The translations under genes were made by a program, and so were the position numbers. From an uncultured candidatus Porisulfidus sp. (GTDB lineage: Bacteria > Pseudomonadota > Gammaproteobacteria > Poriferisulfidales > Poriferisulfidaceae), in assembly GCA_965242985.1 (NCBI GenBank), contig OZ251520.1, positions 142,426 to 206,425 on the forward strand: a DNA stretch of 64,000 bases. Reading direction: 5' to 3'. This document shows, piece after piece, positions 3,881 through 63,798 of this stretch (position 1 is its first letter; every line of letters begins with the position of its first letter). Under the pieces are notes generated by a model that worked only from the letters and a program-made list of their open reading frames with translations, was not told the origin of the DNA and made no database searches.

Positions 3881-3918
3881 GTAGAATGCACGCGTCTCGA
3901 ACCACCCGGAGCGCGAGC

Positions 3919-4473: not shown

Positions 4474-6623
4474 AGCGCTTCCTCGCCGGCCCGCTGCCGG
4501 TGCTGGGCGTGTTCCTGCTGCTGTGCGCCTCGCTCGGCGCGATGGCCGAGGCGACCCAGAGCTCCGGGCACTTCCACCGCTGGCAGTGGTGGACGATCGG
4601 CCTCAACGGCGCGCTCGGCGGCGTCCTGCTGGTGCTGATCGGCCTCGCCGTGGCCCGCCTGGCGCGCCAGCTGCGCCGCCGCGAGACCGGCTCCCGGCTG
4701 TCGCTGCGCATGGCGGTGATGTTCGCCGGCTTCACCCTGGTGCCGACCTCCATGGTGTTCGGCTTCTCGATCTGGCTGCTGTCCACCGGCGTCGACAGCT
4801 GGTTCGACGTGGGCGTCGACGACGCCCTGGACAAGGCCGGCAAGCTGAGCCGCTCCTCGATCGACGCGCAGCTGCGCCAGCGCCGCGACCAGATCGAGCG
4901 CCTGCTGCAGGCCGCCGGCGACGTCCGCGACTCGGCCGACGCGGTGGCGCTGACCCACGACCTGGTGCACCGCACCGGCGCCCTGGAGGCGGCGCTGTTC
5001 GACGCCGGCAACCAGATCCTCGCCGCGCAGGGCGAGGCGGTCGACATCGCGCTCGACCGCCCGGACGAGGCCCGGCTGCAGCTGCTGCGCGAGCACGGCG
5101 CCTACCTGACGCAGGAGGAGCACCCGGAGCACGGCACGGTCAGCTACGCGCTGCTGGAGGTGCCGTCGCTGAGCCGCGAGCGGCCGCTGGTGCTGCAGGC
5201 GCGCTACCCGACCTCCGAGCACATGGCCGGGCTGGCCGCCAGCATCGCGCAGGCCGCCGGCACCTACCGGCGGCTGCTGGAGCTGCGCATGCCGCTGAAG
5301 TACAACCTGACGCTGGTGCTGGCGCTGGCGCTGCTGCTGGGGCTGCTGTTCGCGGTGTGGGCGGCGCTGTACTCGGCGCAGCGCATCCTGGCGCCGATCC
5401 CGGAGCTGGCGCGCGGCTTCGAGGCGGTGGCCTCCGGCGAGTACGGCCGCCGCCTGCCGGCCGACCGCCGCGACGAGCTCGGCCACCTGGCGCACGCCTT
5501 CAACCGCATGACCGAGCGGCTGGCCGACAGCCGCTACATCGCCGAGACCCGCCGCCTCACCATCGAGCAGCAGCGCTCCTACCTGAACACGCTCCTCGAG
5601 CACCTGTCGTCCGGGGTGATCAGCCTCGACGCCGACGCCGTGCTGATGACCGCCAACCGCGCCGCCGGCGCCATCCTCGGCCTCAACCTGCAGACGCGCT
5701 TCGGCCAGCCGCTGCTGGCCCTGCGCCGGCTGCACCCGGAGCTGGAGCCGCTGTGGGCGCTGCTCGACGCGCAGCACCGCAGCGAGCGCGAGCTCGAGCG
5801 GCAGCTGCAGCTCCGCGGCGAGCGCCAGACCCTGCTGTGCCACGGCGCGCGGCTGCCGCGGGAGGTCGGCTGCGTGGTGGTGTTCGAGGACATCACCGAC
5901 CTGCAGCAGGCGCAGCGCCAGGCCGCCTGGGGCGAGGTGGCGCGGCGGCTGGCGCACGAGATCAAGAACCCGCTGACCCCGATCCGGCTGTCGGCCGAGC
6001 GGCTGCGGCGCAAGCTCGAGCCGGAGCTGTCCGGCGACGCGGCCGAGCTGCTGCGGCGCGCCGCGCGCACCATCGTCGAGCAGGTCGAGTCCATGCGGCT
6101 GATGCTGAACGAATTCGGCCAGTACGCGGCCGCCGGGTTCCGGCCGGAGCCGGTCGAGCTGGACGCGGCGGTGCGCGAGGTGCTGGACCTGTACCTGGAG
6201 ACCGGCGCGGCCGTCGCCATCCGCCCGCGCCTGAACGCCGCCGGCGCGCGGATCGACGCCGACCCGGGCCGGCTGCGGCAGCTGCTGCACAACCTGCTGA
6301 AGAACGCGCTGGAGGCGCAGGCGGAGCGCATCGCGGGCTTCGTCGAGCTGCGCAGCGAGCGGCGCGGCGGGCAAGTGGCGCTGACGGTGCGCGACGGCGG
6401 CCCCGGCTTCGCCGCGGACGTGATCGGCCGCGCGTTCGAGCCGTACGTCACCACCAAGCCCGGCGGCAGCGGCCTGGGCCTGGCGATGGTGCACAAGATC
6501 GTGCAGGACCACGGCGGCGGCCTGCGCGTATACAATGACCCGGACGCCGGCGGCTGCGTGGAGATCCTGTTCCCGGTCCGCGGCGACGAGCCGGCGGCGG
6601 CGCCGGAGGAGCCGGGGGCATGA
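4458..6623 (+). CDS. ntrY: NtrY-like sensor histidine kinase (TM/HAMP/PAS/HisKA/HATPase)
   Basis: N-terminal TM helices. H-box LAHEIKNPLTPIRLSAERL. G-box GGSGLGLAMVHKIVQDHGG. ATG at 4458 overlaps the upstream gene by 16 nt. Confidence 0.8.
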   Translation: MAAALKRFLAGPLPVLGVFLLLCASLGAMAEATQSSGHFHRWQWWTIGLNGALGGVLLVLIGLAVARLARQLRRRETGSRLSLRMAVMFAGFTLVPTSMVFGFSIWLLSTGVDSWFDVGVDDALDKAGKLSRSSIDAQLRQRRDQIERLLQAAGDVRDSADAVALTHDLVHRTGALEAALFDAGNQILAAQGEAVDIALDRPDEARLQLLREHGAYLTQEEHPEHGTVSYALLEVPSLSRERPLVLQARYPTSEHMAGLAASIAQAAGTYRRLLELRMPLKYNLTLVLALALLLGLLFAVWAALYSAQRILAPIPELARGFEAVASGEYGRRLPADRRDELGHLAHAFNRMTERLADSRYIAETRRLTIEQQRSYLNTLLEHLSSGVISLDADAVLMTANRAAGAILGLNLQTRFGQPLLALRRLHPELEPLWALLDAQHRSERELERQLQLRGERQTLLCHGARLPREVGCVVVFEDITDLQQAQRQAAWGEVARRLAHEIKNPLTPIRLSAERLRRKLEPELSGDAAELLRRAARTIVEQVESMRLMLNEFGQYAAAGFRPEPVELDAAVREVLDLYLETGAAVAIRPRLNAAGARIDADPGRLRQLLHNLLKNALEAQAERIAGFVELRSERRGGQVALTVRDGGPGFAADVIGRAFEPYVTTKPGGSGLGLAMVHKIVQDHGGGLRVYNDPDAGGCVEILFPVRGDEPAAAPEEPGA

Positions 6624-9334: not shown

Positions 9335-10801
9335 ATGGCCGTCCAATTCCGGGTCGTCCAGCGCCTGCTCGGCTACCTGCTGACCTTCTTCAGCCTCAGC
9401 ATGCTGCCGCCGCTGGCGGTCAGCCTCGGCTACGGCGACGGCGAGGCGTTCTCGTTCTTCTACGCCTTCGTGCTGCTGTCGCTGCTCGGCACCGCGCTGT
9501 GGGTGCAGGCCGCCCACCGCGCGCCCCGGCGCAGCCCGCTGCGGCTGCGCGACGGCTTCATCGTGGTGGCGCTGTTCTGGGTCGGCCTGGGGCTGGCCGG
9601 CGCCGTGCCGCTGTACCTGTCGCCGGCGCTCGGCCTGGCCGCGGTCGACGCCGTCTTCGAGTCGGTCTCCGGCCTGACCACCACCGGCGCGACCATCCTC
9701 GCCGGCCTCGACGCGCTGCCGCCCTCGCTGCTGTTCTACCGCCAGTTCCTGCAGTGGATCGGCGGCCTCGGCATCATCGTGCTGGCGGTGGCGGTGCTGC
9801 CGCTGCTCGGCATGGGCGGCATGCAGCTGTACCACGCCGAGGCGCCGCACGCGCTGGCCGAGCGGCGCCTGACGCCGCGCATCACCGAGACCGCCAAGGT
9901 GCTGTGGCACCTGTACCTGGGCCTGACGGTGGCCTGCGGCCTCGCCTACTGGGCCGCCGGCATGACCCCGTTCGACGCGGCGTGCCACGCCTTCTCGACC
10001 ATCGCCATCGGCGGCTTCTCCACCCACGACGCCAGCTTCGCGCATTTCGACAGCATCGCCGTGGAGGCGGTGGCGATGCTGTTCATGACGCTGGCCGGGG
10101 TCAACTTCGGCCTGCACTACCTGGCGCTCAGCAAGCGCCGCCCGCGCCTGTACGCCGAGGACGGGGAATTCCGCGCCTACGCCGCGGTGCTGCTTTGCAC
10201 CGCCGCCGTGTGCATCGCCTACCTGGCCGCGGCCGGCTTCTACGCCGACCCGGCCGACACCCTGCGCCACGGCCTGTTCCAGACCGTGTCCATCGCCACC
10301 ACCACCGGCTTCACCACCACCGGCTACGACCACTGGCCGGCGTTCGTCTCGACCCTGCTGCTGCTGACCAGCTTCATCGGCGGCTGCATCGGCTCCACCG
10401 GCGGCGGCATGAAGGTGGTGCGCTTCCTGCTGATGATCAAGCACGGCCGCAAGGAGCTGCAGCGCATCCTGCACCCGGCCGCGCAGATCACGGTGAAGAT
10501 CGGCAACCGCGTGATGACCGACAACGCGCTGCAGGCGGTGTGGGGCTTCCTCGCCGCCTACATCACCACCTTCGTGGTGGTGCTGCTGCTGCTGCTGCTG
10601 ACCGGCCTCGACCACGTCACCGCCTTCTCGGCGGTGGCCGCCACCCTCAACAACCTCGGCCCGGGCCTCGGCGCGGTGAGCGAGAACTACGCCGCGGTCC
10701 CCGCCGCCGGCAAGGCGCTGCTGTGCCTCAGCATGCTGTTCGGGCGGCTCGAGGTGTTCACCCTGCTGGTGGTGCTGACGCCGTCGTTCTGGCGGCGCTG
10801 A
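9335..10801 (+). CDS. trkH: Trk potassium uptake membrane protein TrkH
   Basis: Multi-TM protein with repeated GLTTTGAT / TTTGFTTTG selectivity-filter-like motifs. Begins 3 nt after the trkA stop. Confidence 0.9.
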
Positions 10802-11343
10802 TGGGACTGCGCGCGCGCTGGAACGCGCGCCGCCGGGCGGCGCGCGCCGATGCGCCGCAACCCTGCGCCCTCTTGGCCGAACAGGCCGCGCTGCTGCCCG
10901 CCGCGGGGCATGCGCTGGACCTCGCCTGCGGCCGCGGCGGCAACGCGCTGTGGCTGGCGCGCCGCGGCTGGACGGTCGACGCCTGGGACCTGTCGGACGC
11001 GGCCGTCGAAGAACTGCGGGCGCGCGCCGCGCGCGAAGGCCTGGACCTGCGCGCCGCGGTCCGCGACGTCATCGCCCGCCCGCCGCCGCCGGACTGCTGC
11101 GACCTGGCGGCGGTGAGCCGTTTCCTGCACCGCCCGCTGCTGCCGGCGCTCGCCGCCGCGGTGCGCCCGGGCGGCCTGCTCGCCTACCAGACGTTCCTCG
11201 CCGGACGCCCCGGCCCCGGCCCGCGCAACCCGGACTACCTGCTGCGCCCGGGCGAACTGCGCGCGCGCTTCGCCGGCTGGGAGGCGCTGCACGACGAAGA
11301 GCGCGGCGGCCAGGCCCTGTGGCTGGCGCGCCGCCCGGGCTAG
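10801..11343 (+). CDS. Small class I SAM-dependent methyltransferase (TehB/tellurite-resistance-like), 180 aa
   Basis: LDLACGRGGNALWLARRGWTVDAWDLS (motif I) and VRPGGLL (post-II). ATG overlaps the trkH stop by 1 nt (TGATG). Convergent 4-nt overlap (CTAG) with lpxL. Confidence 0.7.
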   Translation: MGLRARWNARRRAARADAPQPCALLAEQAALLPAAGHALDLACGRGGNALWLARRGWTVDAWDLSDAAVEELRARAAREGLDLRAAVRDVIARPPPPDCCDLAAVSRFLHRPLLPALAAAVRPGGLLAYQTFLAGRPGPGPRNPDYLLRPGELRARFAGWEALHDEERGGQALWLARRPG

Positions 11344-12227
11344 CGGTACAGCGACGGCGGCTCCATCCGGCGCTTGCGGAAGCGCGGGTAGCTCCACCAG
11401 TACTGCTCGACGGCCTCGCCGATGCAGGCTTCCACGGTGGCGTTGAGGCCGGCGGCGGCGGTCGCCGGCTCCGGCGCATAGACGCGCGCGTCGGCGGGCA
11501 GCACCTCCAGCCGGAAGCCGCCCCGGCGGCGCAGGCAGCGCACCGCCAGCACCGTCACGCCCTGCCGGCGGGCGAGGCGGGCCGCCAGCGCGGCGGTGGC
11601 GGCCGGCACGCCGAAGAACGGCGCCAGCACGCCGTCCTCCAGCCGCCGCGGCGTGTGGTCCGGCAGGATGCCGACCGCCTGCCCGGCCCGCAGGGCCTCG
11701 AGCTGCGCGCGCACGCCGCCGCGGTCGGCCGGCACCAGCACGCCGCCGGTGCGCTCCCGGCCCGCGCGCGCGTAGCGGTCGAGCGCCGGCTGCTTGAGCG
11801 GCCGGTACATGCTGTGCATCTTCACCTCCAGCGCCAGGTACAGCCCGGAGAACTCCCAGTTGCCGAGATGCGGGGTGATCAGGACCACGCCGCCGCCCTT
11901 CGCCTTGGCCCGCTCCAGCAGGTCGAAGCCGGCGGTCTCGACCGCGAGGCGCCGGACGCGCGCCGGCGGCAGCCGCCACAGCCGCGGCGTCTCCAGCAGG
12001 CTGCGGGCTTCGTGGATCAGGCTCTTGCGCGCCGTGTTCTGGTGCCAGGCGTCGTCCCGCCGCGGGAAGCAGGCGCGCAGGTTGATGACCGCGGTGCGGA
12101 AGCGGCGGCCCGGGACGTAGCCCAGCAGCAGGCCCAGAACGCCGCCCAGAAACCGCAGCGCCGGCAGGGGAAGCCGGCCCAGCAGGCGCAGCAGCAGGAT
12201 GAATGCGGAGGCGGACATGTGCGGCAT
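11340..12227 (-). CDS. lpxL: Lipid A biosynthesis lauroyl/myristoyl acyltransferase (LpxL/HtrB family)
   Basis: HLGNWE acyltransferase motif (ITPHLGNWEFSG), N-terminal membrane anchor, about 295 aa. Confidence 0.8.
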   Translation of the reverse strand: MPHMSASAFILLLRLLGRLPLPALRFLGGVLGLLLGYVPGRRFRTAVINLRACFPRRDDAWHQNTARKSLIHEARSLLETPRLWRLPPARVRRLAVETAGFDLLERAKAKGGGVVLITPHLGNWEFSGLYLALEVKMHSMYRPLKQPALDRYARAGRERTGGVLVPADRGGVRAQLEALRAGQAVGILPDHTPRRLEDGVLAPFFGVPAATAALAARLARRQGVTVLAVRCLRRRGGFRLEVLPADARVYAPEPATAAAGLNATVEACIGEAVEQYWWSYPRFRKRRMEPPSLYR

Positions 12228-12414
12228 TCAATAGGATAACACAGGAAGAACGTTGTTTCAATACCGAAATAAAGCAAAATATTGATAAACAATATAATTT
12301 TTTATTTCTATTATCGTTTTTCTATATTAAAATCATCATTTGGAATGGATATGCAATAACATTTAGAATTATAGTATGCTAACATTTGCAAGAAGACTTC
12401 CAGTCCATGCATTC

Positions 12415-13662
12415 ATGAAGAAAAACCTCTATCCGCGCCATGCCGAGCAGAATCTGCTGGCGACGCTGGACGAATCCCCCGCCGTCCTGGTCCACGGCCC
12501 CCGCCAGTGCGGAAAAACCACGCTGGCGCGCATGATCGGAGAAACTCGAGGCTGCCAATTCGTTGATTTTAACCTGCGCGCGCCGCGCGAGAACGCGCGC
12601 AACGACCCGGACGGCTTCGCGGCCGGCCTGCCGGAGCGCGCCATCCTCGACGAAGTGCAGCTCGTGCCCGAACTGTTCGCGGCGCTGCGAGTGGAAATCG
12701 ACCGCCGCCGCGCCCCGGGCCGGTTCCTGATGACCGGCTCCAGCAACGTTCTGCTGTCGCCGAAACTTGCCGATTCTTTGGCGGGCCGCATGGAGATCCT
12801 GGACCTGCACCCGCTGTCGCAGTGCGAACTGGAGCGCGCCGAGCCGGCCTTCCTGGATGCGCTCTTCGCGGCGGACTTCCGGATGCGGACCACCGAGCCG
12901 CTGCTCCGGCAACTCGCGGAGCGCGTCGCAACGGGCGGCTATCCGGCGATCTTCGCGCGGCCATCCGCGCGGGGCCGGAGAAACTGGCATCGCAACTATG
13001 TCCGCATGCTCATGCAGCGCGACATCCGGTCTCTGCAGCGCATTTACTCGCCGGACGCCGTGCCGAAACTGCTGGAGCTGGCCGCCGCGCAGAGCGCCCA
13101 ACTGCTGAACGTGGCCGGAATCGCGTCCAACTTCGAATTGAATCGGCTCACGGTCCGCAGCTACCTGACGCTGCTGCGGAATATCTTCGTGCTGGACCAT
13201 CTGCCCGCGTGGCATCACAAGCGGGGCGCGGGCCTTGTGAAAAGGCCCAAGCAGCATTTCGGCGACACCGGCCTTGCGTGCTTCCTGCTGAAAGCCGGCG
13301 CGGAAGAACTTTACGCGCCGCACTTGGACCGCGCGCTGTTCGGGCGCCTGCTGGAGACTTTCGTGCTGCAGGAATTGCGGCGGCAGGCCAGCGCCGGCCG
13401 AGAGCCGGTGGACTTTTTTCATTACCGGGAGAAATCCGGAGCGGAAGTGGACATCGTGCTCAGCCGCGGCAGCCGCTTGGCGGGCATCGAAGTCAAGGCG
13501 GCCGCCACGGCCGGCGCGGAAGACTTTCGCGGGCTGAAGCGCTTTCGGAAGTTGGCGGGCGAGCGCTTCGCCTGCGGGGCGGTGCTGTATGACGGACACC
13601 ATTGCTTGCGGTTCGGAGACCGGCTTCACGCGGTGCCGATCCGCTGCCTCTGGGAGACGTGA
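12415..13662 (+). CDS. AAA+ ATPase with DUF4143-like C-terminal domain (AAA_14/DUF4143 family)
   Basis: Walker A GPRQCGKTT and Walker B ILDEVQ. C-terminal region is typical of the widespread DUF4143 ATP-binding proteins. Preceded by a 190-bp AT-rich spacer. ATG at 12415 (an alternative ATG lies at 12376). Confidence 0.65.
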   Translation: MKKNLYPRHAEQNLLATLDESPAVLVHGPRQCGKTTLARMIGETRGCQFVDFNLRAPRENARNDPDGFAAGLPERAILDEVQLVPELFAALRVEIDRRRAPGRFLMTGSSNVLLSPKLADSLAGRMEILDLHPLSQCELERAEPAFLDALFAADFRMRTTEPLLRQLAERVATGGYPAIFARPSARGRRNWHRNYVRMLMQRDIRSLQRIYSPDAVPKLLELAAAQSAQLLNVAGIASNFELNRLTVRSYLTLLRNIFVLDHLPAWHHKRGAGLVKRPKQHFGDTGLACFLLKAGAEELYAPHLDRALFGRLLETFVLQELRRQASAGREPVDFFHYREKSGAEVDIVLSRGSRLAGIEVKAAATAGAEDFRGLKRFRKLAGERFACGAVLYDGHHCLRFGDRLHAVPIRCLWET

Positions 13663-27680: not shown

Positions 27681-28904
27681 TTATCGTTTTACTAGCAGCG
27701 CAATATCCCGTCCAAGACGTTCGGCTGTATCGAGGTTTAGCGTGAATCCTTGGTAACCCCATAGTGAAAATAAAACTAGTGTGATTTGAGGAGATTCTTG
27801 TTTTTTTTCGGGGCGGACTACGTTAAGTTTCCAGTGGTTGACAGGCGAAAAGTTAACGGAAAGAGTAGCATTTTCTCCAAAAAGGAGATTATCGACTCGT
27901 TGTTTTACCTCTCTATCGGAAATTACATTCGCATCGGTTCCAATACAGGGCTGTAACGTTTTAAGTGAATCAGTAATTTCGGCAGCCACGAAGAATTCTC
28001 GAGAACAACGCGCGATTGCTTCGCGCAAATTATAGGGCAAGATACGTGGTTTTTGTAGAGCACCGACAAGAACATTACTAGAATTAAGTGGAAGATAGAT
28101 CGCAGTTAAATCATCATTGGGAGTGAGGTGATTTTTGTAGCAAGGTTGTCCAGCAACACGGAAGAGGACGATAGAATCTCCTAAAACCATAGGTAGATCT
28201 GCTGTAGGCAGAACTGCGTACGATAGATTCGCATATTTTTCTGCCCCTTCTTTTTGTGCGGTAGGATTGTCTAGCGATTGTAGGTGCCGAAGTTTAATTT
28301 CCTCACGGATAAATTCATCAAGCCATGATTTCCAATCGGCGAAAGTTTTTGTAGTTGCTCTCTGGTCGATAGCACCAGAACCAAAACGATGTATTAACAT
28401 ACGCATAGGCTCTTCCGATTCACTGGGCCACCTAGATGTTTGTAGTTCCGCTGCAATCATATTTCGGAGGGCTGCCGAATTACTACGCCCAAACTGCTTT
28501 ATCCACGCCTTGCGATTGCTCTCATTTGATAGGTATTCCATACATTTGTTGACAAGGATTCCCGTCGTATGCAGCAAAGTTTCTCTCAGGCATCTTGTCC
28601 GCATTTCGAAGTGAAAAAGCATCCTAGGTAAGAGATGGTTCGACAAAGCCGATTGCTTTCCGCGTTTAATTTGATCAAGTAACTTAGCAAAGTCAGCCTC
28701 CATTCGGGTTATGTTGGCGTCAACGTCAGAGATATTGCTATGTGAGTAAAAATGGTGTTGGACTCCAACATTTATTATATTGGTTTTGTACGGTTCTCCG
28801 TCATTCCGGAATACTTTGCAAGTAAAGCTATCTCTGCCATCCGACGGGATGGCAAATCCCCTTAAGACAAACTGAGGAATCGTGTGTTGTCGTTTTCCGC
28901 TCAT
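27681..28904 (-). CDS. DUF4238-like protein, paralog 1 (407 aa), low-GC island
   Basis: N-terminus MSGKRQHTIPQFVLRGF matches the DUF4238 hallmark (K.HH.PQFYL..F). Internal IINVG..FYSH and LPRM..HFE.R motifs and C-terminal WGYQGF are shared with paralog 2. ATG overlaps the stop of paralog 2 (ATGA). Local GC ~42-45%. Confidence 0.75.
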   Translation of the reverse strand: MSGKRQHTIPQFVLRGFAIPSDGRDSFTCKVFRNDGEPYKTNIINVGVQHHFYSHSNISDVDANITRMEADFAKLLDQIKRGKQSALSNHLLPRMLFHFEMRTRCLRETLLHTTGILVNKCMEYLSNESNRKAWIKQFGRSNSAALRNMIAAELQTSRWPSESEEPMRMLIHRFGSGAIDQRATTKTFADWKSWLDEFIREEIKLRHLQSLDNPTAQKEGAEKYANLSYAVLPTADLPMVLGDSIVLFRVAGQPCYKNHLTPNDDLTAIYLPLNSSNVLVGALQKPRILPYNLREAIARCSREFFVAAEITDSLKTLQPCIGTDANVISDREVKQRVDNLLFGENATLSVNFSPVNHWKLNVVRPEKKQESPQITLVLFSLWGYQGFTLNLDTAERLGRDIALLVKR

Positions 28905-30133
28905 GTTATTTTGTGCTTTTGGCGGATTTCTTGGCTCAGGCCCAGAAGTGTTTGCGAAAGATTTTCTGCCATCTTTCTGTCCAAAATAAATCCTTGATAA
29001 CCCCACATTGTTTCCAGTGCTAGCAATATGGCAGGAATTCCATTTTTTTCTTTAATTTCTCCTATATAGGAATAAACAGGAGTAGGGGTTATTTCACGAT
29101 AGAGCCTCTTCTCGAATAGGGGTTCATCAATAAACTTCTTTTTTTCTTCTTTCGTAAATAAGTTGGAGTTGGCGCCAATTTTTCCTTGTAGTTTTTGATT
29201 TGTCTCAGTATTTTCGGAAGCAATAAAGTATTCGAGGGAACATTGAGCAACAATTTTAAGAAAATCGTCGGGTATCACCCTTTCCCGTTGGTGGGCTCCA
29301 ACTAGCACAGATTCGCTGTCAATTGGGAGGTAAACGGCGATTAGTTCATCGTCTGTGTCAAGAATAGTCTTGTATTGTTCTTCCGAGTTTACATGAAAGA
29401 GGAGAGGAAAATCCCCCAAAATCATACCATCATGTTTTTTTACTATGCTGTAGATTAGATGTTCATACTTTCTTGCTCGTGTTTTGGATGCAGGTGAGGA
29501 CTGTATTGACTTGATGTGACTAGACTGCGTAGTTTCTTCTCTCGCCGTTGTATGCTCGTGGATAAAGTTGCGGATGCTTTCGGGAAAACCCTCTGGGAGA
29601 TGTTGTCGCTGGTCGATTAGATTTGGACCCAACATTAGAAATGGCGTAAGCATTTCTTGGGGCAAGTTGTTTCCTTTCAAAGTTGCTTGAATGCCCTCTT
29701 GGACAAGGGGGGAATTGCGGCAAACCAAATCTTTCAGTTTGTTGGCAAGGCTTTCACCGTCGCCTATAAAATCGAGTATATTTGACATGAAAATTTCGTA
29801 TCCTTGTGAAAGATGATCTCTAAGATGTTTTGACCGAATTTCAAAGTGGGCAATCATTCTGGGAAGGCTGGGGCTTGATAAGGCTGTTTCTTGTCTAGCC
29901 CTGATTCCGTCAAGAAGATCTGCAAATATTGGTTCAATTTCAGTTATAGCATTATCGGCATCTAAATCATCATGCGTGTAGAAGTTACTTTCGGCACCAA
30001 CATTAATAATGTCGGCGTGAAATGGCTCTTTGTCACGTTGAAATACCCACGTGTGCTTCCTATTTTTGTGGGACGAAGAAACAAACCCTTCCAATAAGAA
30101 TCGGGGATTTATGTGGTGTCGTTTGCCAGACAT
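28901..30133 (-). CDS. DUF4238-like protein, paralog 2 (410 aa), low-GC island
   Basis: MSGKRHHINPRFLLEGF N-terminus. IINVGAESNFYTH, LPRMIAHFEIRSKHLRD and WGYQGF motifs are collinear with paralog 1 (roughly 30% identity by eye). Confidence 0.75.
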   Translation of the reverse strand: MSGKRHHINPRFLLEGFVSSSHKNRKHTWVFQRDKEPFHADIINVGAESNFYTHDDLDADNAITEIEPIFADLLDGIRARQETALSSPSLPRMIAHFEIRSKHLRDHLSQGYEIFMSNILDFIGDGESLANKLKDLVCRNSPLVQEGIQATLKGNNLPQEMLTPFLMLGPNLIDQRQHLPEGFPESIRNFIHEHTTAREETTQSSHIKSIQSSPASKTRARKYEHLIYSIVKKHDGMILGDFPLLFHVNSEEQYKTILDTDDELIAVYLPIDSESVLVGAHQRERVIPDDFLKIVAQCSLEYFIASENTETNQKLQGKIGANSNLFTKEEKKKFIDEPLFEKRLYREITPTPVYSYIGEIKEKNGIPAILLALETMWGYQGFILDRKMAENLSQTLLGLSQEIRQKHKIT

Positions 30134-51257: not shown

Positions 51258-51698
51258 TCAGGTTCCGCGCACTGGATTCAGATCAATCCATTGCAGCCCG
51301 GAGAATTTGGAGAAATCCCGGTCAAACGATGCGACCGCCGCACGGTGCGACATCGCCAGTGCCGCCAAGTGTGCATCCATGACCAAGTTGCCGCCTTGGC
51401 CCGTATCCGCCAACAGCTGACGCAGGCGCGGCCAATGATCTTCCGGCTCCGGCACCAGCCGGGCGCTTGGCAGCTCCAGCCACTTGTCCACTTGCTTACT
51501 GGCCTGCTGTAGCGTAAGAGGGTGTTCAAAGACCGAATCGCGAGTGCTTAGCCGCAGAAATCCAGTTACCACCATCCAAGAAAAACCGATCACCTCCCTT
51601 CGGTCGAATGACTCCGCCAGCCATTCCCGCGCTGCCCCATGGTGGAAATTCCCTTTGTTCGCCGCCGACACGACGACGTTGACATCGACCAATATCAC
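51258..51698 (-). CDS. vapC: PIN-domain toxin, VapC family
   Basis: ILVDVNVVVSA N-terminus (first PIN acidic residue), conserved D (GGNLVMDAHLAALA), C-terminal SFDRDF. GTG start. Lower-GC islet. Confidence 0.75.
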   Translation of the reverse strand: MILVDVNVVVSAANKGNFHHGAAREWLAESFDRREVIGFSWMVVTGFLRLSTRDSVFEHPLTLQQASKQVDKWLELPSARLVPEPEDHWPRLRQLLADTGQGGNLVMDAHLAALAMSHRAAVASFDRDFSKFSGLQWIDLNPVRGT

Positions 51699-51818
51699 TC
51701 GCTCTTTGCCGCTTTCGCGGCACTCTCCAATTTCAGCTCGGAGCTCTCCGCGCCTTCCCTAGTGCCAGCCCAGTTTCACTTGCCGCCAAAACTCCGAGCA
51801 TAAAACTCGCAAGCGCCA

Positions 51819-52085
51819 TCATTTGCGCCGCGCCATCTTGAGGATGATCTCCTGATCTTCCAGCTCTGCCGCGGCAGACAGCGCTTTGTCCAAATTCACC
51901 TTGGGGCTGCCCATATCGTGCACGGTCTGCCGAAACGGCTTGAACGCACGCCGCATCGCTTCATCCTTCTCCAAACCAAGCCGCACCATGTCATTGGTGA
52001 GATTGTTCAGAGAGATGCCGCGTTCATCCGCTAATTTCTGCAATTTGTTCCGCACATCATCAGCAAGGTCGAGAGAGATATGCAT
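51819..52085 (-). CDS. vapB: Ribbon-helix-helix (CopG/Arc-type) antitoxin, VapB-like
   Basis: MHISLDLADDVRNKLQKLADERGISLNNLTNDMV RHH motif. 88 aa. Lies 120 nt upstream of vapC, same strand. Confidence 0.65.
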   Translation of the reverse strand: MHISLDLADDVRNKLQKLADERGISLNNLTNDMVRLGLEKDEAMRRAFKPFRQTVHDMGSPKVNLDKALSAAAELEDQEIILKMARRK

Positions 52086-52493
52086 GGTGCCGCACCAAGC
52101 CAATAACAGGAACGCTATTCTAGCACCCTCGCCCCCGCCCGGCATGCCCAGATCCGCTGCCGACATACGGTTTCTGCTCCGAGACAGCCCTTTGCCGCGG
52201 GCAGGATTAGGTTCTGCGCGGCATCACGATTTGGCTGGAAAACTTAACCACACGCGCAATTAGCACCTAAAAGACCAAAAAACGGACGGGATTGCAATCA
52301 ACTTGAGCGAGGGCATACCGCCCTCGCGGAAGCAAGTTTTTAGAAATAAGAAAAAGGGCGTCAGGCTGGGCGAACCATATCGAGCTCATCAAGAGCACCC
52401 GACAGTTGCGTATGATACTAGATCTCTATGCGGGCCGCGAACTGTAACCCGCCGTTCCTTGTTACGCTTCCCAACAGTCCTCCGCATTTCGGC

Positions 52494-54525: not shown

Positions 54526-54996
54526 CTACGCAACTCCGGCGAAGTCCGCCCGCGCCAGCCACGCCCGCCCGCCTTCGCTGAGCGCCTCCAGCCGCAGCTC
54601 GCGCCGCTGTTCTTCTTCGCCCGCGGCGAGCCGCACCCGCAGGTCGGCGCGCGCCGCCGCCTCCGGCCAGCGCTCCGGCCATTCGAGCAGCACCGTGGCG
54701 CGGCCGTCCAGCAGCTCGCGCAGGCCCAGCTCCTCGAGCTCGGCCGGATCCTGCAGCCGGTACAGGTCGACGTGGTACACCGTCCGCCCGCCCGCCGCGT
54801 AGGGCTCGACCAGGGTGTAGGTCGGGCTCGGCACCGTCCCCGCGTGCCCGAGCGCGGCGAGGAAGGCGCGCGCCCAGGCGGTCTTGCCGGCGCCGAGCGC
54901 CCCCTGCAGCAGCACCAGGCCGGGCGCCTCCTGCGCCCGGGCGAGGGCCGCCGCCGCCCGCCGGGTGTCCGCCTCGGAGCGCAGCGCGAACTTCAC
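54526..54996 (-). CDS. tsaE: tRNA threonylcarbamoyladenosine biosynthesis protein TsaE
   Basis: P-loop GALGAGKTAWARAF and SPTYTLVEPY motif. GTG start overlaps the nnr stop (GTGA). Confidence 0.8.
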   Translation of the reverse strand: MKFALRSEADTRRAAAALARAQEAPGLVLLQGALGAGKTAWARAFLAALGHAGTVPSPTYTLVEPYAAGGRTVYHVDLYRLQDPAELEELGLRELLDGRATVLLEWPERWPEAAARADLRVRLAAGEEEQRRELRLEALSEGGRAWLARADFAGVA

Positions 54997-56459
54997 GCCG
55001 GCGGACGGTTGAGGGCGCGGAGCTCGGGCAGCAGGTCGGAGGCTACGAGCCCGGCCTCGCCCGCGGCCGCGGCGCGGTCGCCGGCGGCGCCGTGCAGGCA
55101 GACTCCCAGGCGCGCCGCGTCGGCCGCGGCGAGGCCTTGCGCCCGCAGCCCCGCGACCGCGCCGCACAGCACGTCGCCCGCGCCGGCGGTGGCGAGGCCG
55201 GGATTGCCGTGGGCGCACACGCCCATGCGGCCGGAGTCGGCGACCAGGGTGCCGCAGCCCTTGAGCGCGGCGACTCCGCCGTAGCGCTCGGCCAGCCCGC
55301 GCGCGGCGGCGAAGCGGTCCCGCTGCACATCCGCGGCGGCGCATCCCAGGAGCGCGCCCGCCTCGCCCGGGTGCGGGGTCAGGATCCAGTCCGCCCGCGC
55401 CTGCGGCTCGGCCGCCAGCAGGCGCAGGGCGTCGGCGTCGACCACCAGCGGCGCGCCGCGCTCGAGCGCGGCGGCGAGCATCTCCCGCGCCCAGGCGCCG
55501 CGCCCCAGGCCCGGGCCGATCGCGACCACGTCGGCGGCCTCGAGCAGCTTCCGCAGCTCGGCGCGGTTCGCGACCGCGTGGTGCATCAGTTCCGGGAACG
55601 CCGGCGCGCCGCCGGCCGCGTCCGGCGGCTGCGCGACGCTGACCAGCCCGCAGCCCGCGCGCAGGGCGGCCGCGCCGCACAAGGCGGCCGCGCCCTGGAA
55701 GCCGGCCGCGCCGCCGACCACCAGCACGTGTCCGCAGTCGCCCTTGTGGGCGTTGCGGGAGCGGCGCGGCAGCCGCGCCCGCAGCCGCTCCCAGTCCAGC
55801 AGCTCCGCGTCCGCCGCGACGCCGGCCGCGTCCACGCCGAGGCCGCGGAACACCACCCGCCCGGCGAACTCCGGCCCGTCGGCGGTGTACAGCCCGCGCT
55901 TGCGGCCGATGAACGTGACGGTCTCGCGGACGCGCGCGCAGGGCCCGAGCGCCCGGCCGGTGTCCGCGCACAGCCCGGACGGCAGGTCCGCCGCCACCGC
56001 CGCGGGCGCGGCGTTGATCCGCTCGACGGCGCGCGCCCAGTCGCCCTCCGGCGCGTGCGACAGGCCGGTGCCGAGCAGGGCGTCGACCGCGAGATCCGCG
56101 GCCGGGTCGTCGGCGGGATCGAACGCCCGCATGGCGACCCCCGCGTCCCGGGCCCGTTCCCAGGCGGCGCGGGCGTCGCCGGACAGCTTCTCCCCCGGGC
56201 GCAGCTGCGCCACGCGCACGGCGCGGCCGGCTTCATGCAGCCGCAGCGCGGCGAGGTAGCCGTCGCCGGCGTTGTTGCCGGCGCCGGCGTACACCGCGAT
56301 CCGTTCCGCGCCGGCGTGCTCGGCCTGCAGCCATTCCCACACCGCCTCCGCGGCGCGGCGCATCAGTTCGGCGCCGGACAGGCCCTGCTCCGCCTGCGCC
56401 AGGCGGTCGAGTTCGCGCGACTGCGCGGCGGTGTAGAGGGGAGCGGCGGCGTCCGGCAT
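54993..56459 (-). CDS. nnr: Bifunctional NAD(P)H-hydrate repair enzyme Nnr (epimerase + ADP-dependent dehydratase)
   Basis: N-terminal YjeF_N (GAGNNAGDGY) and C-terminal carbohydrate-kinase-like domain (HKGDCGHVLVVGGAAGFQGAAAL ... GDVLCG). Confidence 0.85.
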   Translation of the reverse strand: MPDAAAPLYTAAQSRELDRLAQAEQGLSGAELMRRAAEAVWEWLQAEHAGAERIAVYAGAGNNAGDGYLAALRLHEAGRAVRVAQLRPGEKLSGDARAAWERARDAGVAMRAFDPADDPAADLAVDALLGTGLSHAPEGDWARAVERINAAPAAVAADLPSGLCADTGRALGPCARVRETVTFIGRKRGLYTADGPEFAGRVVFRGLGVDAAGVAADAELLDWERLRARLPRRSRNAHKGDCGHVLVVGGAAGFQGAAALCGAAALRAGCGLVSVAQPPDAAGGAPAFPELMHHAVANRAELRKLLEAADVVAIGPGLGRGAWAREMLAAALERGAPLVVDADALRLLAAEPQARADWILTPHPGEAGALLGCAAADVQRDRFAAARGLAERYGGVAALKGCGTLVADSGRMGVCAHGNPGLATAGAGDVLCGAVAGLRAQGLAAADAARLGVCLHGAAGDRAAAAGEAGLVASDLLPELRALNRPPA

Positions 56460-56726
56460 CGCCGGGGAATTGTATAGAAGTTGCCGTATTTGCGGGCAAC
56501 ACCCTTTCCCAGCGGGCTGTGCCCTGAAAGCATCTCATTCCGGGAAATAGCCGTTACCCGCCACGGCCCAAGCTAGCCGGGTATGTATTCGTGTATAGTT
56601 GCCGCATGGCGAGTTTCCTGCTGCGCCCGCCAAACGCATGCCTCATCAGCAATTAAACTGCTTTCGTCCGCTGGTGCTGGCGAAATGGGCCGCGCGGGTC
56701 ATTCCCCCCGCAGGCACGACGCTAAA

Positions 56727-57506
56727 ATGAGGCAGCACTACAAAAATCCCCCCATTGAGGAGGCACTTTGCGAGTTCCGTTTCATACCAAGCCGGAAGTG
56801 GGATCTGACGATTCCGGGCATACTGCGCACCAAAGTCGACGAGAAATATGGGGGGGAACCGCGAGAGCAGCGGGTATTTTCGGCAACTTTGAACACCTCG
56901 AACGAAAATTCCCCAGAATTGCAGGCCCACGAAGGATTGGGGAAAGTCATGCTGGTCAACGATAACGCCACTAGAATGATCGGCGTCGGACGCGATGTGA
57001 TCAGCGTGCATATGTTGCGACCGTACCAAAACCCGGACTCGCCTGAAACAAGCGGGTGGGGAGAGTTTCTTCCGCGTATTGAAGAAGCGCTGGGCTCATA
57101 CTGGGACGTGGCGGCCCCCGTCGGAACCGCGAGAATCGGAGTTCGCTACATCAATAAAGTTGCAGTCCCGGAAAATATCGCTAGCATTAAAGCCTTTCTG
57201 CAGGAACGGGTGCGGTGTGCCCTCCCGGACATCGAAAATTTCCCCGGCAGGATGAGCGACCTTACGAGTCGCATCGAATACGACTGCGGAAACAATATCA
57301 AACTGACGCTGTCCCAGTATCTGCTGGCCCCGGGGACTGGGCATCTGGATTTTTTCCTCGATATCGACGTCGTCTGGAGCGCCGATACGGAACCACTCGA
57401 CCTCGCCGCGACACTGGAAAAAGCCGGCGCGTTAAAACAACAGGAAAATGGTGTTTTTGAGGCTTTGATAACGGACAAAGCCCGGGAGCAATTTCATGCA
57501 GGCTAA
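56727..57506 (+). CDS. TIGR04255-family protein (conserved hypothetical, 259 aa), low-GC cassette gene 1
   Basis: N-terminus MRQHYKNPPIEEALCEFRF matches the TIGR04255 hallmark (Y.N.PI.E..CE.RF). GC ~52%. Confidence 0.65.
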   Translation: MRQHYKNPPIEEALCEFRFIPSRKWDLTIPGILRTKVDEKYGGEPREQRVFSATLNTSNENSPELQAHEGLGKVMLVNDNATRMIGVGRDVISVHMLRPYQNPDSPETSGWGEFLPRIEEALGSYWDVAAPVGTARIGVRYINKVAVPENIASIKAFLQERVRCALPDIENFPGRMSDLTSRIEYDCGNNIKLTLSQYLLAPGTGHLDFFLDIDVVWSADTEPLDLAATLEKAGALKQQENGVFEALITDKAREQFHAG

Positions 57507-58113
57507 CACGCAATTCGCAAGCGGCGGCGAAAATTCCGCCGACCGCGGCTTAGTCTCTTGTGTGGCGCTCGGCAAGAGCTCGCTAGCCGTGTCTCCAGCC
57601 ACCATTTCTCTGGAGAAACGGGGAACGGAGCTGATACAGCTCTTTGTCGAGTTTTTGGAGAGGGCTTTACCGCAAGCACCGAGGAGATCTGCCGCGGCGA
57701 ATCACCGGGAGACGCTACTTGATATCAAATTGTGCGCTGCTTTTGATGCCACACCCTTGGAGGACGGCATCGGTCATCCCGCCGAAAGCGTTATCCAAGA
57801 AGCGTTGCTTTCGACCGCAGACAGTCTGCTGGCCGCCGGGATCTTGCGGGAGTTTTGCCTGAACCCAACACGGCCTGTCTTCGGGGCATCGATTCTGCGG
57901 TGCTTGGGGCGCCTGCCAGAGGCGGGCACATCCGAATGGCGCGAACAGCTCGTTCGGGATGCCCTGAAAGCCGATAATCCGGAAGTCAGGGATGCAGCCA
58001 TACAAGCCGCAGAATCGTGGGGCGGCAATGGAATGGCGGCCGTCTTGCGAAAGCACGATGAGCCGGACGCTTTTCTTCGGCACTATCAGTACAAGGTGGT
58101 CGCCAACTTGTGA
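57496..58113 (+). CDS. Hypothetical protein with HEAT/PBS-lyase-like repeats (205 aa), cassette gene 2
   Basis: Overlaps gene 1 by 11 nt. C-terminal units LGRLPEAGTSEWREQLVRDALKADNPEVRDAAIQAAESWG resemble HEAT_2 repeats. Confidence 0.5.
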   Translation: MQANTQFASGGENSADRGLVSCVALGKSSLAVSPATISLEKRGTELIQLFVEFLERALPQAPRRSAAANHRETLLDIKLCAAFDATPLEDGIGHPAESVIQEALLSTADSLLAAGILREFCLNPTRPVFGASILRCLGRLPEAGTSEWREQLVRDALKADNPEVRDAAIQAAESWGGNGMAAVLRKHDEPDAFLRHYQYKVVANL

Positions 58114-58122
58114 TGCAAGTCT

Positions 58123-58632
58123 GTGATCCTCGTGCGCAAAATTTCTCATGCGAAGTGGAAACTGTCTCCAGATTTTCCACCGGAAGAGATTCGCGCGGAT
58201 GCCATCACCGCGGACTTGCGGACCACGGAAAATGCGCTGTCTTTCTGGAAATGCAAAACAGAATCCGATCTCGACGGGCCAGCCTTGGCAATCGCGGCAA
58301 CTATGGATCGAGTCGATAAAATGGACTTGGCGTGGTTGCCGCCGGAAATATTGGCCGAACTCGACTTGGCCCATGCGAATACTGCTGGGAAGACGCCTGT
58401 GGCGAACTGGGTGAACCGCCACATCTCCATCAGCAAACTGGATTATGTCCGTCTCGGAACAGTCGCCCGTCAAATTTCCGCTGCGGTTAAACAGCAACAA
58501 TTCCGGAGGTTTGTCAAGCAAGAGATCGCCGATCTCCTGCTCGCAGCAGTACGCGACGGTCTTGTGAAAGTCCCGGACCTCGACAAAAAATTGCAAAAAG
58601 AGCTCTTTCCCACCCTCTTGAATACAGCCTGA
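58123..58632 (+). CDS. Hypothetical protein (169 aa), cassette gene 3
   Basis: GTG start 10 nt after the gene 2 stop. Protein-like composition, no recognisable domain. Confidence 0.45.
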   Translation: MILVRKISHAKWKLSPDFPPEEIRADAITADLRTTENALSFWKCKTESDLDGPALAIAATMDRVDKMDLAWLPPEILAELDLAHANTAGKTPVANWVNRHISISKLDYVRLGTVARQISAAVKQQQFRRFVKQEIADLLLAAVRDGLVKVPDLDKKLQKELFPTLLNTA

Positions 58633-58778
58633 TCCAAAAGGCTTCCACTGCCGACCTAGGCCACGAGGCGTAGGTCTGAACATAAGTTGTGCTGCGTACT
58701 GGAAGTTGAAAGTTAAAACGGCACGGCGCTCTTGCGGCGTTTTGCTACAATCGAGCCTCTTTCCGCTGGAGATTCCCC

Positions 58779-59363
58779 ATGCAAAATCCCCTGAAATCCG
58801 TCGCCGGCACCCTGATTTCCGGCCTGGTCCTGGCCTTGATCCTGGGCGCCGCGCACCAGGGCTTCACGATCAACCTGCCCTCGCTGATCGTCTGGGCGCA
58901 CGTGTTCGTGGGCATCATCTGGATCGGCCTGCTGTACTACTTCAACTTCGTGCAGATCCCCGCGGTCGGCGAAGCGGCGGCCGACAGCGACGGCCCCGGG
59001 CCCGCCGCCATCAACAAGTACGTCGCCCCCCGGGCGCTGCTGTGGTTCCGCTGGGCGGCGCTGCTGACCTGGCTGACCGGCGCGGCCGCGCTCGAGACCA
59101 TGGGCATCGGCTTCGCCAACGCGTTCCTGCTGCACACCCCCGCCATCGGCATCGGCGTGTGGCTCGGCACCATCATGCTGTTCAACGTGTGGGTGCTGAT
59201 CTGGCCGAACCAGAAGAAGGTGCTCGGCATGGTCGAGGCCAGCGACGAGGAGAAGGCCAAGGCGAAGAACACGGCGATGCTCGCCTCCCGCACCAACACC
59301 CTGCTGTCGATCCCGATGCTGATGTCCATGGTGTCGTTCGGGCACGGCGGCTTGGCGTTCTGA
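58779..59363 (+). CDS. Conserved integral membrane protein (HemJ/PuuD/CopD-like 4-5 TM fold), function uncertain
   Basis: Signal-like N-terminus and multiple TM helices ([22 protein letters not shown]...). Native GC. Sits upstream of argD. Confidence 0.5.
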
Positions 59364-59430: not shown

Positions 59431-60615
<1,185 letters not shown>

Positions 60616-62424: not shown

Positions 62425-63798
62425 ATGCTTACCCGAATGCGTTTGAAAGGCTTCAAATCCTGGCGCGACACCGGGGAGGTCGAGTTGCGTCCGATCACCG
62501 GCATTTTCGGTGCCAACAGTTCCGGGAAGACCAGCCTGCTGCAGGCGCTGTTGCTGCTGAAGCAGACGGCGGACTCGCCAGATCGGTCACTGACACTCCA
62601 TTTCGGCAGTCTCGGAACTCTCGTGAATCTCGAGAGTTTTCTCGACGTGGCACACGGTCACAAATCTAGGGGAACCCTTGACATCGCTCTCGACTGGGAA
62701 ACCGACTCTTCCATGGAAATTACTGACCCAAGCAACGACAATCAAGTCGTTGTTGAAAGCAATAGTCTAGGATTTCAAACTCAGGTTGGCTACAAGAACA
62801 GAACAAAAGGCGCATCCACCTACGTAAAAGAGATGACGTATCGGGTTGGGAATATCTCATTTGGCATGCACCAGAAGTCTCGCAACAGATCTGAGTACGA
62901 GCTCCGCTCTAAAAAAGGAAGTTTCCAGTTCAAACGCGTGCGAGGGTGGCCCGGGGTCCTGCATGGGCCGGACAAGTGCTACGGATTCCCCGATCAGGTT
63001 CGGGCGTATTACCAGAATGCAGGATTCGTGGCGGATCTCGAGTTGGAGCTGGAAAATTGCCTGAGCCGCTTATACTACTTGGGCCCTTTGCGCGAATCCC
63101 CGCTACGCGTGTATTCGTGGAGTGGAGCACAACCCACCGATGTTGGGTCTAGGGGAAAATCTTTCGTCAATGCCATTCTGGCATCGGGCGCACAAGGCAA
63201 CACGATAAAACGAGGTCAAGGTGTGAAGAGCCTTTCTCTCGCGGAATATGTTGCTTGGTGGCTGAAAAAACTCAAACTTGTCCATGAGTTCCGCGTAAAA
63301 CCTGTTGCAAAAGGCAGCCGGCTGTACGAGGTCCGCGTCCGACGTTTCCCAACCTCGCCCGAAGCACTCATTACCGACATCGGCTTCGGCGTGTCGCAGA
63401 TCCTGCCTGTCTTGGTGTTGTGCTTTTACGCCCCGGAAGGATCCACCATTATTCTGGAACAACCGGAAATTCACCTGCATCCCGCCGTACAGTCGGGACT
63501 CGCCGACGTTCTGATCGATGCCCACAAGAAGCGCGGAGTGCAGATCCTTTTGGAAAGCCACAGCGAGCACCTGCTGTACCGGCTGCAGAGGCGCGTCGCG
63601 GAAGAAAAAATCACGGACCGGGAACTCGGCCTGTATTTCTGCAAGGCCTACGGCGGCCATTCCAACTTGACACCGCTTAACATTGATCCGTTTGGTGTCA
63701 TTCATAACTGGCCGGAAGATTTCTTCGGCGACACTTTCGGGGAAATTGCTGCTACACGCAAAGCCGGACTGAAACGTTCTCAGGAAGCAGAAACATGA
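62425..63798 (+). CDS. ABC-type AAA_21-family ATPase (AAA_21 N-terminal / DUF3696-type C-terminal architecture), low-GC
   Basis: N-terminus MRLKGFKSW...ITGIFGANSSGKTSLLQALLLL (Walker A). C-terminus ILEQPEIHLHPAVQ (Walker B / D-loop) ... ESHSEHLL (H-loop). GC ~50%. Confidence 0.75.
   Translation: MLTRMRLKGFKSWRDTGEVELRPITGIFGANSSGKTSLLQALLLLKQTADSPDRSLTLHFGSLGTLVNLESFLDVAHGHKSRGTLDIALDWETDSSMEITDPSNDNQVVVESNSLGFQTQVGYKNRTKGASTYVKEMTYRVGNISFGMHQKSRNRSEYELRSKKGSFQFKRVRGWPGVLHGPDKCYGFPDQVRAYYQNAGFVADLELELENCLSRLYYLGPLRESPLRVYSWSGAQPTDVGSRGKSFVNAILASGAQGNTIKRGQGVKSLSLAEYVAWWLKKLKLVHEFRVKPVAKGSRLYEVRVRRFPTSPEALITDIGFGVSQILPVLVLCFYAPEGSTIILEQPEIHLHPAVQSGLADVLIDAHKKRGVQILLESHSEHLLYRLQRRVAEEKITDRELGLYFCKAYGGHSNLTPLNIDPFGVIHNWPEDFFGDTFGEIAATRKAGLKRSQEAET

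Follow-up and report, generated by a model that had tools for sequence, protein, structure and literature searches.

A three-gene cassette headed by a TIGR04255 family protein, recurrent among defence genes and mobile elements of many bacterial phyla, as a candidate conflict system

A stretch of 64,000 nucleotides (nt) from an uncultured candidatus Porisulfidus sp. (contig OZ251520.1, positions 142,426 to 206,425; hereafter the window, by whose first letter positions are counted) carries a cassette of three plus-strand open reading frames (ORFs), g1, g2 and g3, which fill positions 56727-58632. The proteins that they encode are designated A, B and C. This triad is a previously undescribed and widespread three-gene module, and probably a new family among mobile defence and addiction cassettes. 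That it constitutes a conflict system, acting in defence, in addiction or in both, is the reading favoured here, held with rather more confidence than doubt. The genes of the locus and of its flanks are the following.

54993..56459, minus strand: nnr, bifunctional NAD(P)H-hydrate repair enzyme, the upstream host flank (GC 80%, GC at third codon positions (GC3) 0.96; the orthologue in the related loci L001 and L004 is YjeF_N + Carb_kinase)
56727..57506, plus strand: g1 (A), TIGR04255 family protein of 259 amino acids (aa), profile match of 93.9 bits
57496..58113, plus strand: g2 (B), 205 aa, with a hypervariable N-terminal part of ~80 aa and a conserved C-terminal half, putatively HEAT-like
58123..58632, plus strand: g3 (C), predicted alpha/beta protein of 169 aa with a GTG start, from a large unnamed family
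58779..59363, plus strand: membrane protein of the Urate_ox_N family, 194 aa, the downstream host flank (GC3 0.97)
59431-60615: argD, after the Urate_ox_N gene and followed by argF

The three genes are co-directional and g1 overlaps g2 by exactly 11 nt, both as claimed in an earlier note on this DNA; the spacer between g2 and g3, given there as 10 nt, measures 9 nt (58114-58122). The same note had placed the insert between nnr and the argD region, which holds on the nnr side, while the immediate downstream neighbour is the Urate_ox_N-type gene and not argD. A longer g1 starting at an upstream ATG (56583) was rejected, since the homologues have 256-259 aa and the extension is neither conserved nor alignable in L004.

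The g1 protein, previously described as being of the TIGR04255 type, proved to be a full-length member of that family in an NCBIfam profile search (cut-off 30 bits, E = 1.3e-26, profile positions 2-251 of 252). It displays the N-terminal signature Y-x-N-P-P-I-E-E-A-x-C-E-F-R-F, and its homologues share invariant E12, E16, R83, S93, R140, D212, D214, E245 and R253, as well as a nearly invariant H95. Structure models were made for g1 and g3 and compared by Foldseek with the PDB and BFVD libraries. The model of g1 consists of two beta-alpha-beta(3-4)-alpha repeats (pLDDT, the predicted local distance difference test, 78.7, from a shallow multiple sequence alignment of 26 sequences) and has no significant match in the PDB, the best candidates being Pct1, AdoMetDC, Ntn-type acylases and PYR/PYL (E >= 1e-3, template modelling (TM) score <= 0.30). 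The match to Pct1 and an E-x-x-x-E-x-R strand gave rise to the idea of a triphosphate-tunnel enzyme, which was dropped because a weak Pfam scan (E <= 10) of 26 g1 homologues returned nothing recurrent, CYTH/TTM included. There is no Pfam model of the TIGR04255 family, and no relative of g1 was found in the PDB.

For g2, HEAT-like repeats had been proposed at the C-terminus. Residues 131-195 match HEAT_2 (PF13646) at 25.5 bits (E = 1.7e-5), just under the gathering threshold of 27.7, and the same model is matched by 40 of 59 g2 homologues at E <= 0.1 (best value 2.9e-6); a HEAT-like C-terminal half is therefore credible at the level of the family, while the protein of the window itself falls below the Pfam gathering score. 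Column identity amounts to 0.17-0.33 over the first 80 residues and to 0.34-0.61 in the remainder. As to g3, described earlier as devoid of a recognisable domain, it indeed has no match in Pfam, NCBIfam or PADLOC, yet it belongs to PHROG 10743 (function unknown), with E = 4.7e-28 over residues 2-162 and profile positions 3-169 of 178. An exhaustive search with a hidden Markov model (HMM) extended this family to 2,460 clusters at 50% identity; among the 150 hits with the highest scores, nearly every one is a stand-alone protein with a length of about 165-175 aa. The g3 homologues have invariant K11, W12, D26, D31, T34, S40 and H100, and the predicted structure is that of an alternating beta/alpha protein (pLDDT 82.7, from a shallow alignment of 11 sequences) without a fold match in the PDB or BFVD. 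The conserved polar residues of g1 and g3 are compatible with enzymes, although they prove nothing. The PDB sequences were also searched with profiles of each of the three families, without a match. All public names of these proteins are 'hypothetical protein', and in the library of papers searched, also with regard to HEAT-repeat defence and Ab105-1phi, there was no mention of TIGR04255 or of the protein accessions and no description of the triad.

A word-indexed protein search retrieved 355 relatives of g1 and only about 10 each of g2 and g3, which could mean that the partners of g1 vary. For this reason the 80 best genomic loci were picked by g1 conservation only, and their six-frame ORFs were then searched with g2 and g3. 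In 75 of these 80 loci (82 of 87 when loci obtained before are included) g1 is directly followed by homologues of both genes, with order and orientation unchanged, so that the co-occurrence of the three families, set beforehand as a test, turned out positive. The geometry is conserved as well: in most loci, across phyla, the ATG of g2 lies 11 nt before the end of g1, as in the window, and the usual distance from g2 to the start of g3 is 3 or 9 nt. Furthermore, the pairwise distance matrices of A, B and C are correlated over 58 non-redundant loci (r = 0.77-0.85, Mantel p = 0.001). The hosts are metagenome-assembled genomes (MAGs) from more than 10 phyla, the groups represented being Latescibacterota, Binatia, Chloroflexota, Acidobacteriota, Gemmatimonadota, Spirochaetia, Nitrospirales, Thermodesulfobacteriota, Myxococcota, Alpha- and Gammaproteobacteria and others. 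What the window holds is thus a single copy of an operon that is conserved, occurs sporadically and moves horizontally. A horizontally acquired functional unit, as had been suggested for it, is supported by the co-occurrence, the conserved overlap, the correlated distances and the foreign composition reported below.

Nearly all of the 80 best genomic loci come from MAGs, and many of the record titles (L008-L087) carry names of the sponge-symbiont type, such as Ca. Entotheonella, Ca. Spongiisociaceae, Ca. Palauibacter rhopaloidicola, Latescibacterota and Binatia. Behind these names may lie either a true enrichment in the microbiomes of sponges or the composition of the collection.

The genomic surroundings of the triads were surveyed by calling neighbour genes with a simple longest-ORF rule, followed by clustering and scanning. 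The commonest neighbour family is the N6_N4 DNA methylase (11 of 217 nearest neighbours), followed by ResIII/RE_endonuc, SNF2 helicases, DUF4391, AAA_15/21, AAA_14/DUF4143 and transposases; with the PADLOC models, type III methyltransferases were found in 10 of 138 nearest neighbours, together with MADS components and AriA. In five loci (L013, L015, L051, L059 and L070) the triad stands between two type III genes, mod (N6_N4_Mtase) and res (ResIII + RE_endonuc); in two of these, L015 and L070, res has a reading frame whose first start codon overlaps the end of g3. An SNF2 helicase gene precedes mod in L051, L059 and L070, joined by DUF4391 in L059 and L070, and in L020 SNF2, DUF4391 and Mod lie upstream of the triad with no res called downstream. 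As an observation apart, a recurrent SNF2-Mod-Res operon with the triad after mod is complete in L051, L059 and L070 (span 19-10959 in L070). A literature search returned no paper explaining DUF4391.

In loci whose Pfam annotation was precomputed, the triad adjoins BREX genes and transposases, comes directly after a type I hsdR in an island that also holds SIR2, DUF87 and a Schlafen-like gene, lies in a type III-like restriction-modification (R-M) cluster followed by a UvrD helicase, or has a DUF5131 gene on one side and an Eco57I-type enzyme on the other, with Fic nearby. On three different contigs (L177-L179, positions 10001-12065) identical triads are found within an F-type type IV secretion system cluster, in the order TraL...TraC, triad, HipBA and Calx-beta proteins, TraU, TraN, which indicates that the triad rides on a conjugative element. 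AAA_14/DUF4143 ATPases adjoin triads in five loci outside the window, and the Thermus plasmid pTB1 carries a distant TIGR04255 gene among Argonaute, VapBC, methylase and Cas6. Such contexts are, in qualitative terms, the signature of conflict genes, be they defence or addiction genes.

Distant versions of the triad bring to light its modular construction. Relatives of g3 at 28-30% identity occur in Acinetobacter prophages, where the triads follow the tail and lysis genes at the lysis-distal end, in a 7.5-kb Acinetobacter plasmid and in Klebsiella plasmids. In the 4.4-kb ColRNAI plasmids of Klebsiella the three-gene block (229, 199 and 173 aa) is the only cargo (at 220-2031 in the 4,375-bp plasmid L091, of a very common kind), and the proteins of this triad (accessions WP_004187669, WP_102003594 and WP_004187661) are present on 260-596 contigs, always under the name hypothetical. 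The last gene of the distant triads, and that of one IMG/VR contig, matches the g3 HMM with E = 1e-24 to 1e-40, and with the g2 HMM the middle gene was recognised in three of these four triads (E = 8e-14 to 3e-3), the prophage gene giving no match (E = 0.36). Homology of the first gene of the Klebsiella and Acinetobacter triads, designated A', to TIGR04255 was sought by NCBIfam scan, family HMM and hhalign and was not detected.

Conversely, divergent TIGR04255 genes without g2 or g3 still head tightly coupled small downstream genes, with the 11-nt overlap in three of four cases. Two small ORFs likewise come after the TIGR04255 gene in a P2-like phage of Ralstonia and in Thermus. The comparison brought out another kind of TIGR04255 triad (L079, 5995-7843; L089, 194-2061), with a B' of about 165-204 aa and a C' of about 146-161 aa that are homologous between this Ralstonia phage and the genome of the cyanobacterium Scytonema (37% identity; E = 4e-34 and 3e-15). 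The Scytonema version keeps the 11-nt overlap. C' has the conserved motifs YR, S-x-AF, PSV-R and NPAHA and no relative was found for it in the PDB. The downstream genes of the Ralstonia phage and of Scytonema had been considered as g2 and g3 homologues; homology was not detected and they are treated as the separate B'/C' pair. Given that B-C occurs with A', and TIGR04255 with B'-C', B and C behave as an inseparable pair and A as an exchangeable partner, and the B-C pairs with which TIGR04255 is associated are of at least two kinds.

In the window the cassette stands out by its composition. The GC content of 300-nt windows is 0.52-0.59 over 56500-58750, as against 0.74-0.82 upstream and 0.66-0.80 downstream; the cassette as a whole has 55.3% GC versus 71.9% in the rest of the window, and GC3 is 0.60-0.64 in g1-g3 versus 0.96-0.98 in nnr, the Urate_ox_N gene and argD. 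This quantitative check of GC and codon usage bears out the foreign composition assumed in the earlier note, with a contrast larger than stated there, and the cassette has the deviant composition and codon usage by which genomic islets are recognised. No flanking direct repeats were found at its borders, no recombinase ORF is present in the islet according to the ORF list, and no tRNA lies nearby, the sole tRNA of the window being at 15571. An empty site, sought in metagenomes via the downstream gene, was not found; the triad is present in all three close relatives, and 38 informative loci have neither the triad nor synteny with nnr and are thus too distant to act as one.

The history of the site can be read from four metagenomic contigs (L001-L004) in which a triad occupies the same position, with nnr on one side and the Urate_ox_N gene on the other. 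Since two related lineages share the triad at this site, the cassette did not arrive recently. Compared with the window, protein identity in the flanks is 86-96% for L001 (nnr and the Urate_ox_N gene) and 88-92% for L004 (these two and argD), and for A, B and C, respectively, 84, 71 and 72% in L001 and 63, 47 and 52% in L004, where the triad at 3024-4943 was compared with 56727-58632 of the window. The numbers of synonymous substitutions per site (dS) are 0.47-0.79 (L001) and >1.8 (L004) in the cassette and 0.15-0.23 (L001) and 0.13-0.21 (L004) in the flanks, so that the ratio of cassette to flank at this shared chromosomal site is 2-5x for L001 and ~9x or more for L004, with strong codon bias lowering dS in the flanks. 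The ratio of non-synonymous to synonymous rates (dN/dS) of the cassette genes is 0.14-0.23, which indicates purifying selection. Even so, a gap of about nine-fold or more suggests either an exchange of cassette alleles at a fixed site or a much faster evolution of the cassette than of the flanking genes; for L004, it points to a hotspot of fixed position where alleles were replaced, in preference to plain vertical inheritance. The cassette of the window resides at a fixed site, kept by purifying selection while diverging or being exchanged far faster than the genes around it. As a side observation, in L001 and L002 a gene for a 466-aa AAA_15/AAA_21/DUF3696 ATPase stands past argF and phoU, several genes downstream from the triad.

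The intergenic region between the divergent nnr and g1 contains three elements, two of them copies of a motif.

56471..56486, plus strand: motif copy 1, TGTATAG(AA)GTTGCCG, a possible lineage-specific promoter or operator
56592..56604, plus strand: motif copy 2, TGTATAGTTGCCG, 123 nt upstream of the g1 start, with TATAGT as a possible -10 element
56480..56500 (arms 56480-85 and 56495-500): inverted repeat GTTGCC-N9-GGCAAC, probably a chance match

The hairpin and the repeated TATAG motif had both been pointed out in the earlier note and both are present; the hairpin, which is neither significant nor conserved, was rejected as a regulatory element, being 1 of 18 comparable inverted pairs in 301 nt, with arms that are not kept in L001 and L004. 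Similarly, an 8-nt complementarity between 56639-46 and the g1 start codon was dismissed as chance, as it is not conserved in these two loci. L001 and L004 both keep the blocks of copy 1 (TTGTATAGAA) and copy 2 (TTCGTGTATAGTTG) without any change, the identity in the rest of the intergenic region being 74%. TGTATAG blocks were found upstream of none of 56 other triad loci, which shows that they are not part of the mobile unit; they are probably a promoter or operator of this lineage. A sigma-70 scan of the region returned no full promoter. Many other triads have instead a common leader, ...ACAATCAATTCGGAGGAAAGAACCC-ATG, recorded in the 30 nt upstream of g1 as ...ACAA..AATTC(G/A)GAGGAAAGAACCC before the ATG in L005, L007-L010, L015, L024, L030, L035 and others. 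This leader is conserved across phyla and absent from the copy in the window. The mobile unit seems to bring along a ribosome-binding leader of its own.

Recurrence in many phyla within R-M operons, defence islands, conjugative elements, prophages and tiny plasmids makes an anti-phage or anti-plasmid system, or an addiction system, the most likely nature of the triad. Genes embedded in defence operons are frequently defences themselves (10.1101/2024.01.29.577857, preprint), and the hypervariable N-terminal 80 residues of B are counted as further support. The triad would function as a stand-alone conflict system of the anti-phage/anti-plasmid, abortive-infection or toxin-antitoxin-like type, and the chance that it does so by a new mechanism is substantial. 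The translational coupling of the genes speaks for a complex of fixed stoichiometry: an overlap of 11 nt and a gap of 3-9 nt would set the A:B:C proportion, and the proteins would assemble together. The fixed pairing of B and C, as against the exchangeable A, suggests an effector with a HEAT-repeat keeper in B-C and a coupling or sensing partner in A. HEAT arrays are protein-recognition surfaces. B may be imagined as a scaffold or keeper whose conserved HEAT half holds C and whose fast-evolving N-terminal third senses, or is targeted by, a cue derived from the invader; C would be the effector, and A, with its predicted two-lobed alpha/beta fold, the exchangeable third partner that couples sensing to activation. 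This division of labour is speculative and stands a good deal below even probability. It is also conceivable, with better prospects and still short of probable, that the TIGR04255-led triads and the B-C triads form one large combinatorial three-component immune family, made of folds without a solved relative and acting by a mechanism new to bacterial immunity, in which an exchangeable A (TIGR04255 or the unrelated A') would be wired to exchangeable B-C units of effector and inhibitor.

Several observations weigh against a conflict system. None of g1, g2 and g3 has a match in PADLOC-DB v2.0.0 at E <= 1, and no nuclease, NADase, pore, ATPase or DNA-binding domain is recognisable in them. As no fold search returned a significant match, the parts ascribed to A, B and C are guesswork. 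Only about 15-25% of the loci have an R-M gene that can be recognised at a distance of at most two genes, the rule by which neighbours were called is a crude heuristic, and the enrichment in defence contexts is qualitative, drawn from individual cases. The neighbours of the copy in the window are housekeeping genes. Finally, close relatives of the triad are nearly absent from the viral contigs of IMG/VR.

These points have to be weighed together with the competing explanations. The closest of them makes the triad a pure addiction module, working by post-segregational killing in the manner of a tripartite toxin-antitoxin system, with a toxin, a neutraliser and a regulator and no anti-phage role. 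It would account for three small and tightly coupled genes being the sole cargo of non-mobilizable 4.4-kb ColRNAI plasmids on hundreds of Klebsiella contigs, and for the adjacency of HipBA, Fic and VapBC-type modules. However, Pfam, NCBIfam and PADLOC reveal neither a known toxin or antitoxin domain nor a helix-turn-helix or ribbon-helix-helix autoregulator, the proteins are large for type II systems, and the repeated embedding between mod and res fits defence add-ons better; this explanation has a modest chance of being correct, addiction and defence not being mutually exclusive roles. That same embedding is the main argument for an accessory or regulator of R-M, for instance one tuning the activity or specificity of type III Mod/Res, of which the copy in the window would be an orphan. 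The triad lies exactly between mod and res in at least five loci from several phyla, with an overlap of the res start codon and the g3 end in L015 and L070, and type III methyltransferases are the commonest neighbour family. Nevertheless, most loci have no adjacent R-M genes, including those of the window and the integrative conjugative element, plasmid and prophage copies, and where partners exist they vary between type I, type IIG, type III and BREX, which renders such a function quite improbable.

Seen from the window alone, with its housekeeping surroundings, one might think of an accessory function unrelated to conflict, such as a stress, regulatory or small-molecule-binding complex that is mobile by chance, the more so as the model of A weakly resembles alpha/beta sandwiches of the ligand-binding or self-processing kind, namely AdoMetDC (probability 0.9, TM 0.29) and the Bet v1-like PYR/PYL. 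These fold matches are not significant, though, and contexts dominated by defence genes and mobile elements, a sporadic distribution and the rapid modular divergence typical of conflict genes leave this possibility a small chance. Lastly, foreign composition and the lack of annotations could be taken as signs of decaying foreign DNA, whose ORFs are without function and simply not yet lost. This is hardly believable for three ORFs that are intact in the window, in L001 and in L004, with dN/dS of 0.14-0.23, and that have hundreds to thousands of intact homologues with a conserved operon geometry.

If the reading as a conflict system is true, a widespread family is added to the prokaryotic immune repertoire, C alone accounting for 2,460 clusters, and TIGR04255, a curated family without function, receives a first functional handle. 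It would also explain the cargo of the 4.4-kb 'cryptic' plasmids of Klebsiella and the common three-gene block found here at the end of Acinetobacter baumannii prophages, a matter of relevance to phage therapy and plasmid ecology, and a combinatorial family would be already established in clinically important hosts (small plasmids of Klebsiella pneumoniae, prophages of A. baumannii). The pairing of A or A' with B-C, and of TIGR04255 with B'-C', offers a natural experiment separating the sensing part from the acting part. The recurrence of Mod-[triad]-Res is a further example of immune systems nested in one another.

Other low-GC islets of the window were noticed on the way. The lowest in GC (27681-30133, minus strand; 41-43% GC, GC3 0.37-0.38) encodes adjacent paralogues of 441 and 410 aa with a related motif at or near the N-terminus (MSGKRQHTIPQFVLRGF in one, MSGKRHHINPRFLLEGF in the other), which may resemble DUF4238-type proteins of defence islands. 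A low-GC pair at 51258-52166 (minus strand; 146 and 115 aa) has, by eye, the look of a PIN/VapC toxin (VILVDVNVVV...) whose upstream neighbour is antitoxin-like. A 457-aa P-loop protein (GANSSGKTSLL) is encoded at 62425-63798 (plus strand, 54% GC), and a 428-aa ATPase-like ORF (GPRQCGKTTLARM) lies in a GC dip at 12376-13662 (plus strand). The window shows a 75%-GC host genome peppered with small foreign cassettes.

With regard to known families, g1 matches TIGR04255 (NCBIfam 'sporadTIGR04255') end to end at three times the cut-off, and the fixed partnership with two downstream genes was not found in the description of that family. Tripartite toxin-antitoxin(-chaperone) modules also consist of three small co-translated genes on plasmids, prophages and islands; the triad differs from them by the absence of homology to HigBA, SecB-like and other toxin-antitoxin families and by proteins of 170-260 aa, larger than usual. 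The PADLOC-DB systems of 'three hypothetical proteins', Rst_3HP and the like, resemble it as three-gene cassettes of unknown function in phage and satellite hotspots, although the triad, with no PADLOC match at E <= 1, is not a member. Defence proteins such as DSR2 are reported to use HEAT repeats as a sensing surface (PMC11263360), and B has a HEAT-like region too; in the triad, however, the HEAT protein is a separate one of 205-277 aa, without SIR2 or another enzymatic domain, and its variable part is the non-HEAT N-terminus. A parallel in genomic organization is given by PrrC/EcoprrI, RloC and the Hma-embedded HEC systems. Most copies of the triad are not embedded in this way, and its proteins have none of the ABC-ATPase, anticodon-nuclease, GmrSD, HEPN, RelE and NYN domains of PrrC, RloC and HEC. 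Where it is nested in R-M operons, it is so in the same manner as these systems, with the methylase on one side and the restriction subunit on the other, and it was by nesting in immune operons that the validated defences of Payne et al. (10.1101/2024.01.29.577857) were discovered.

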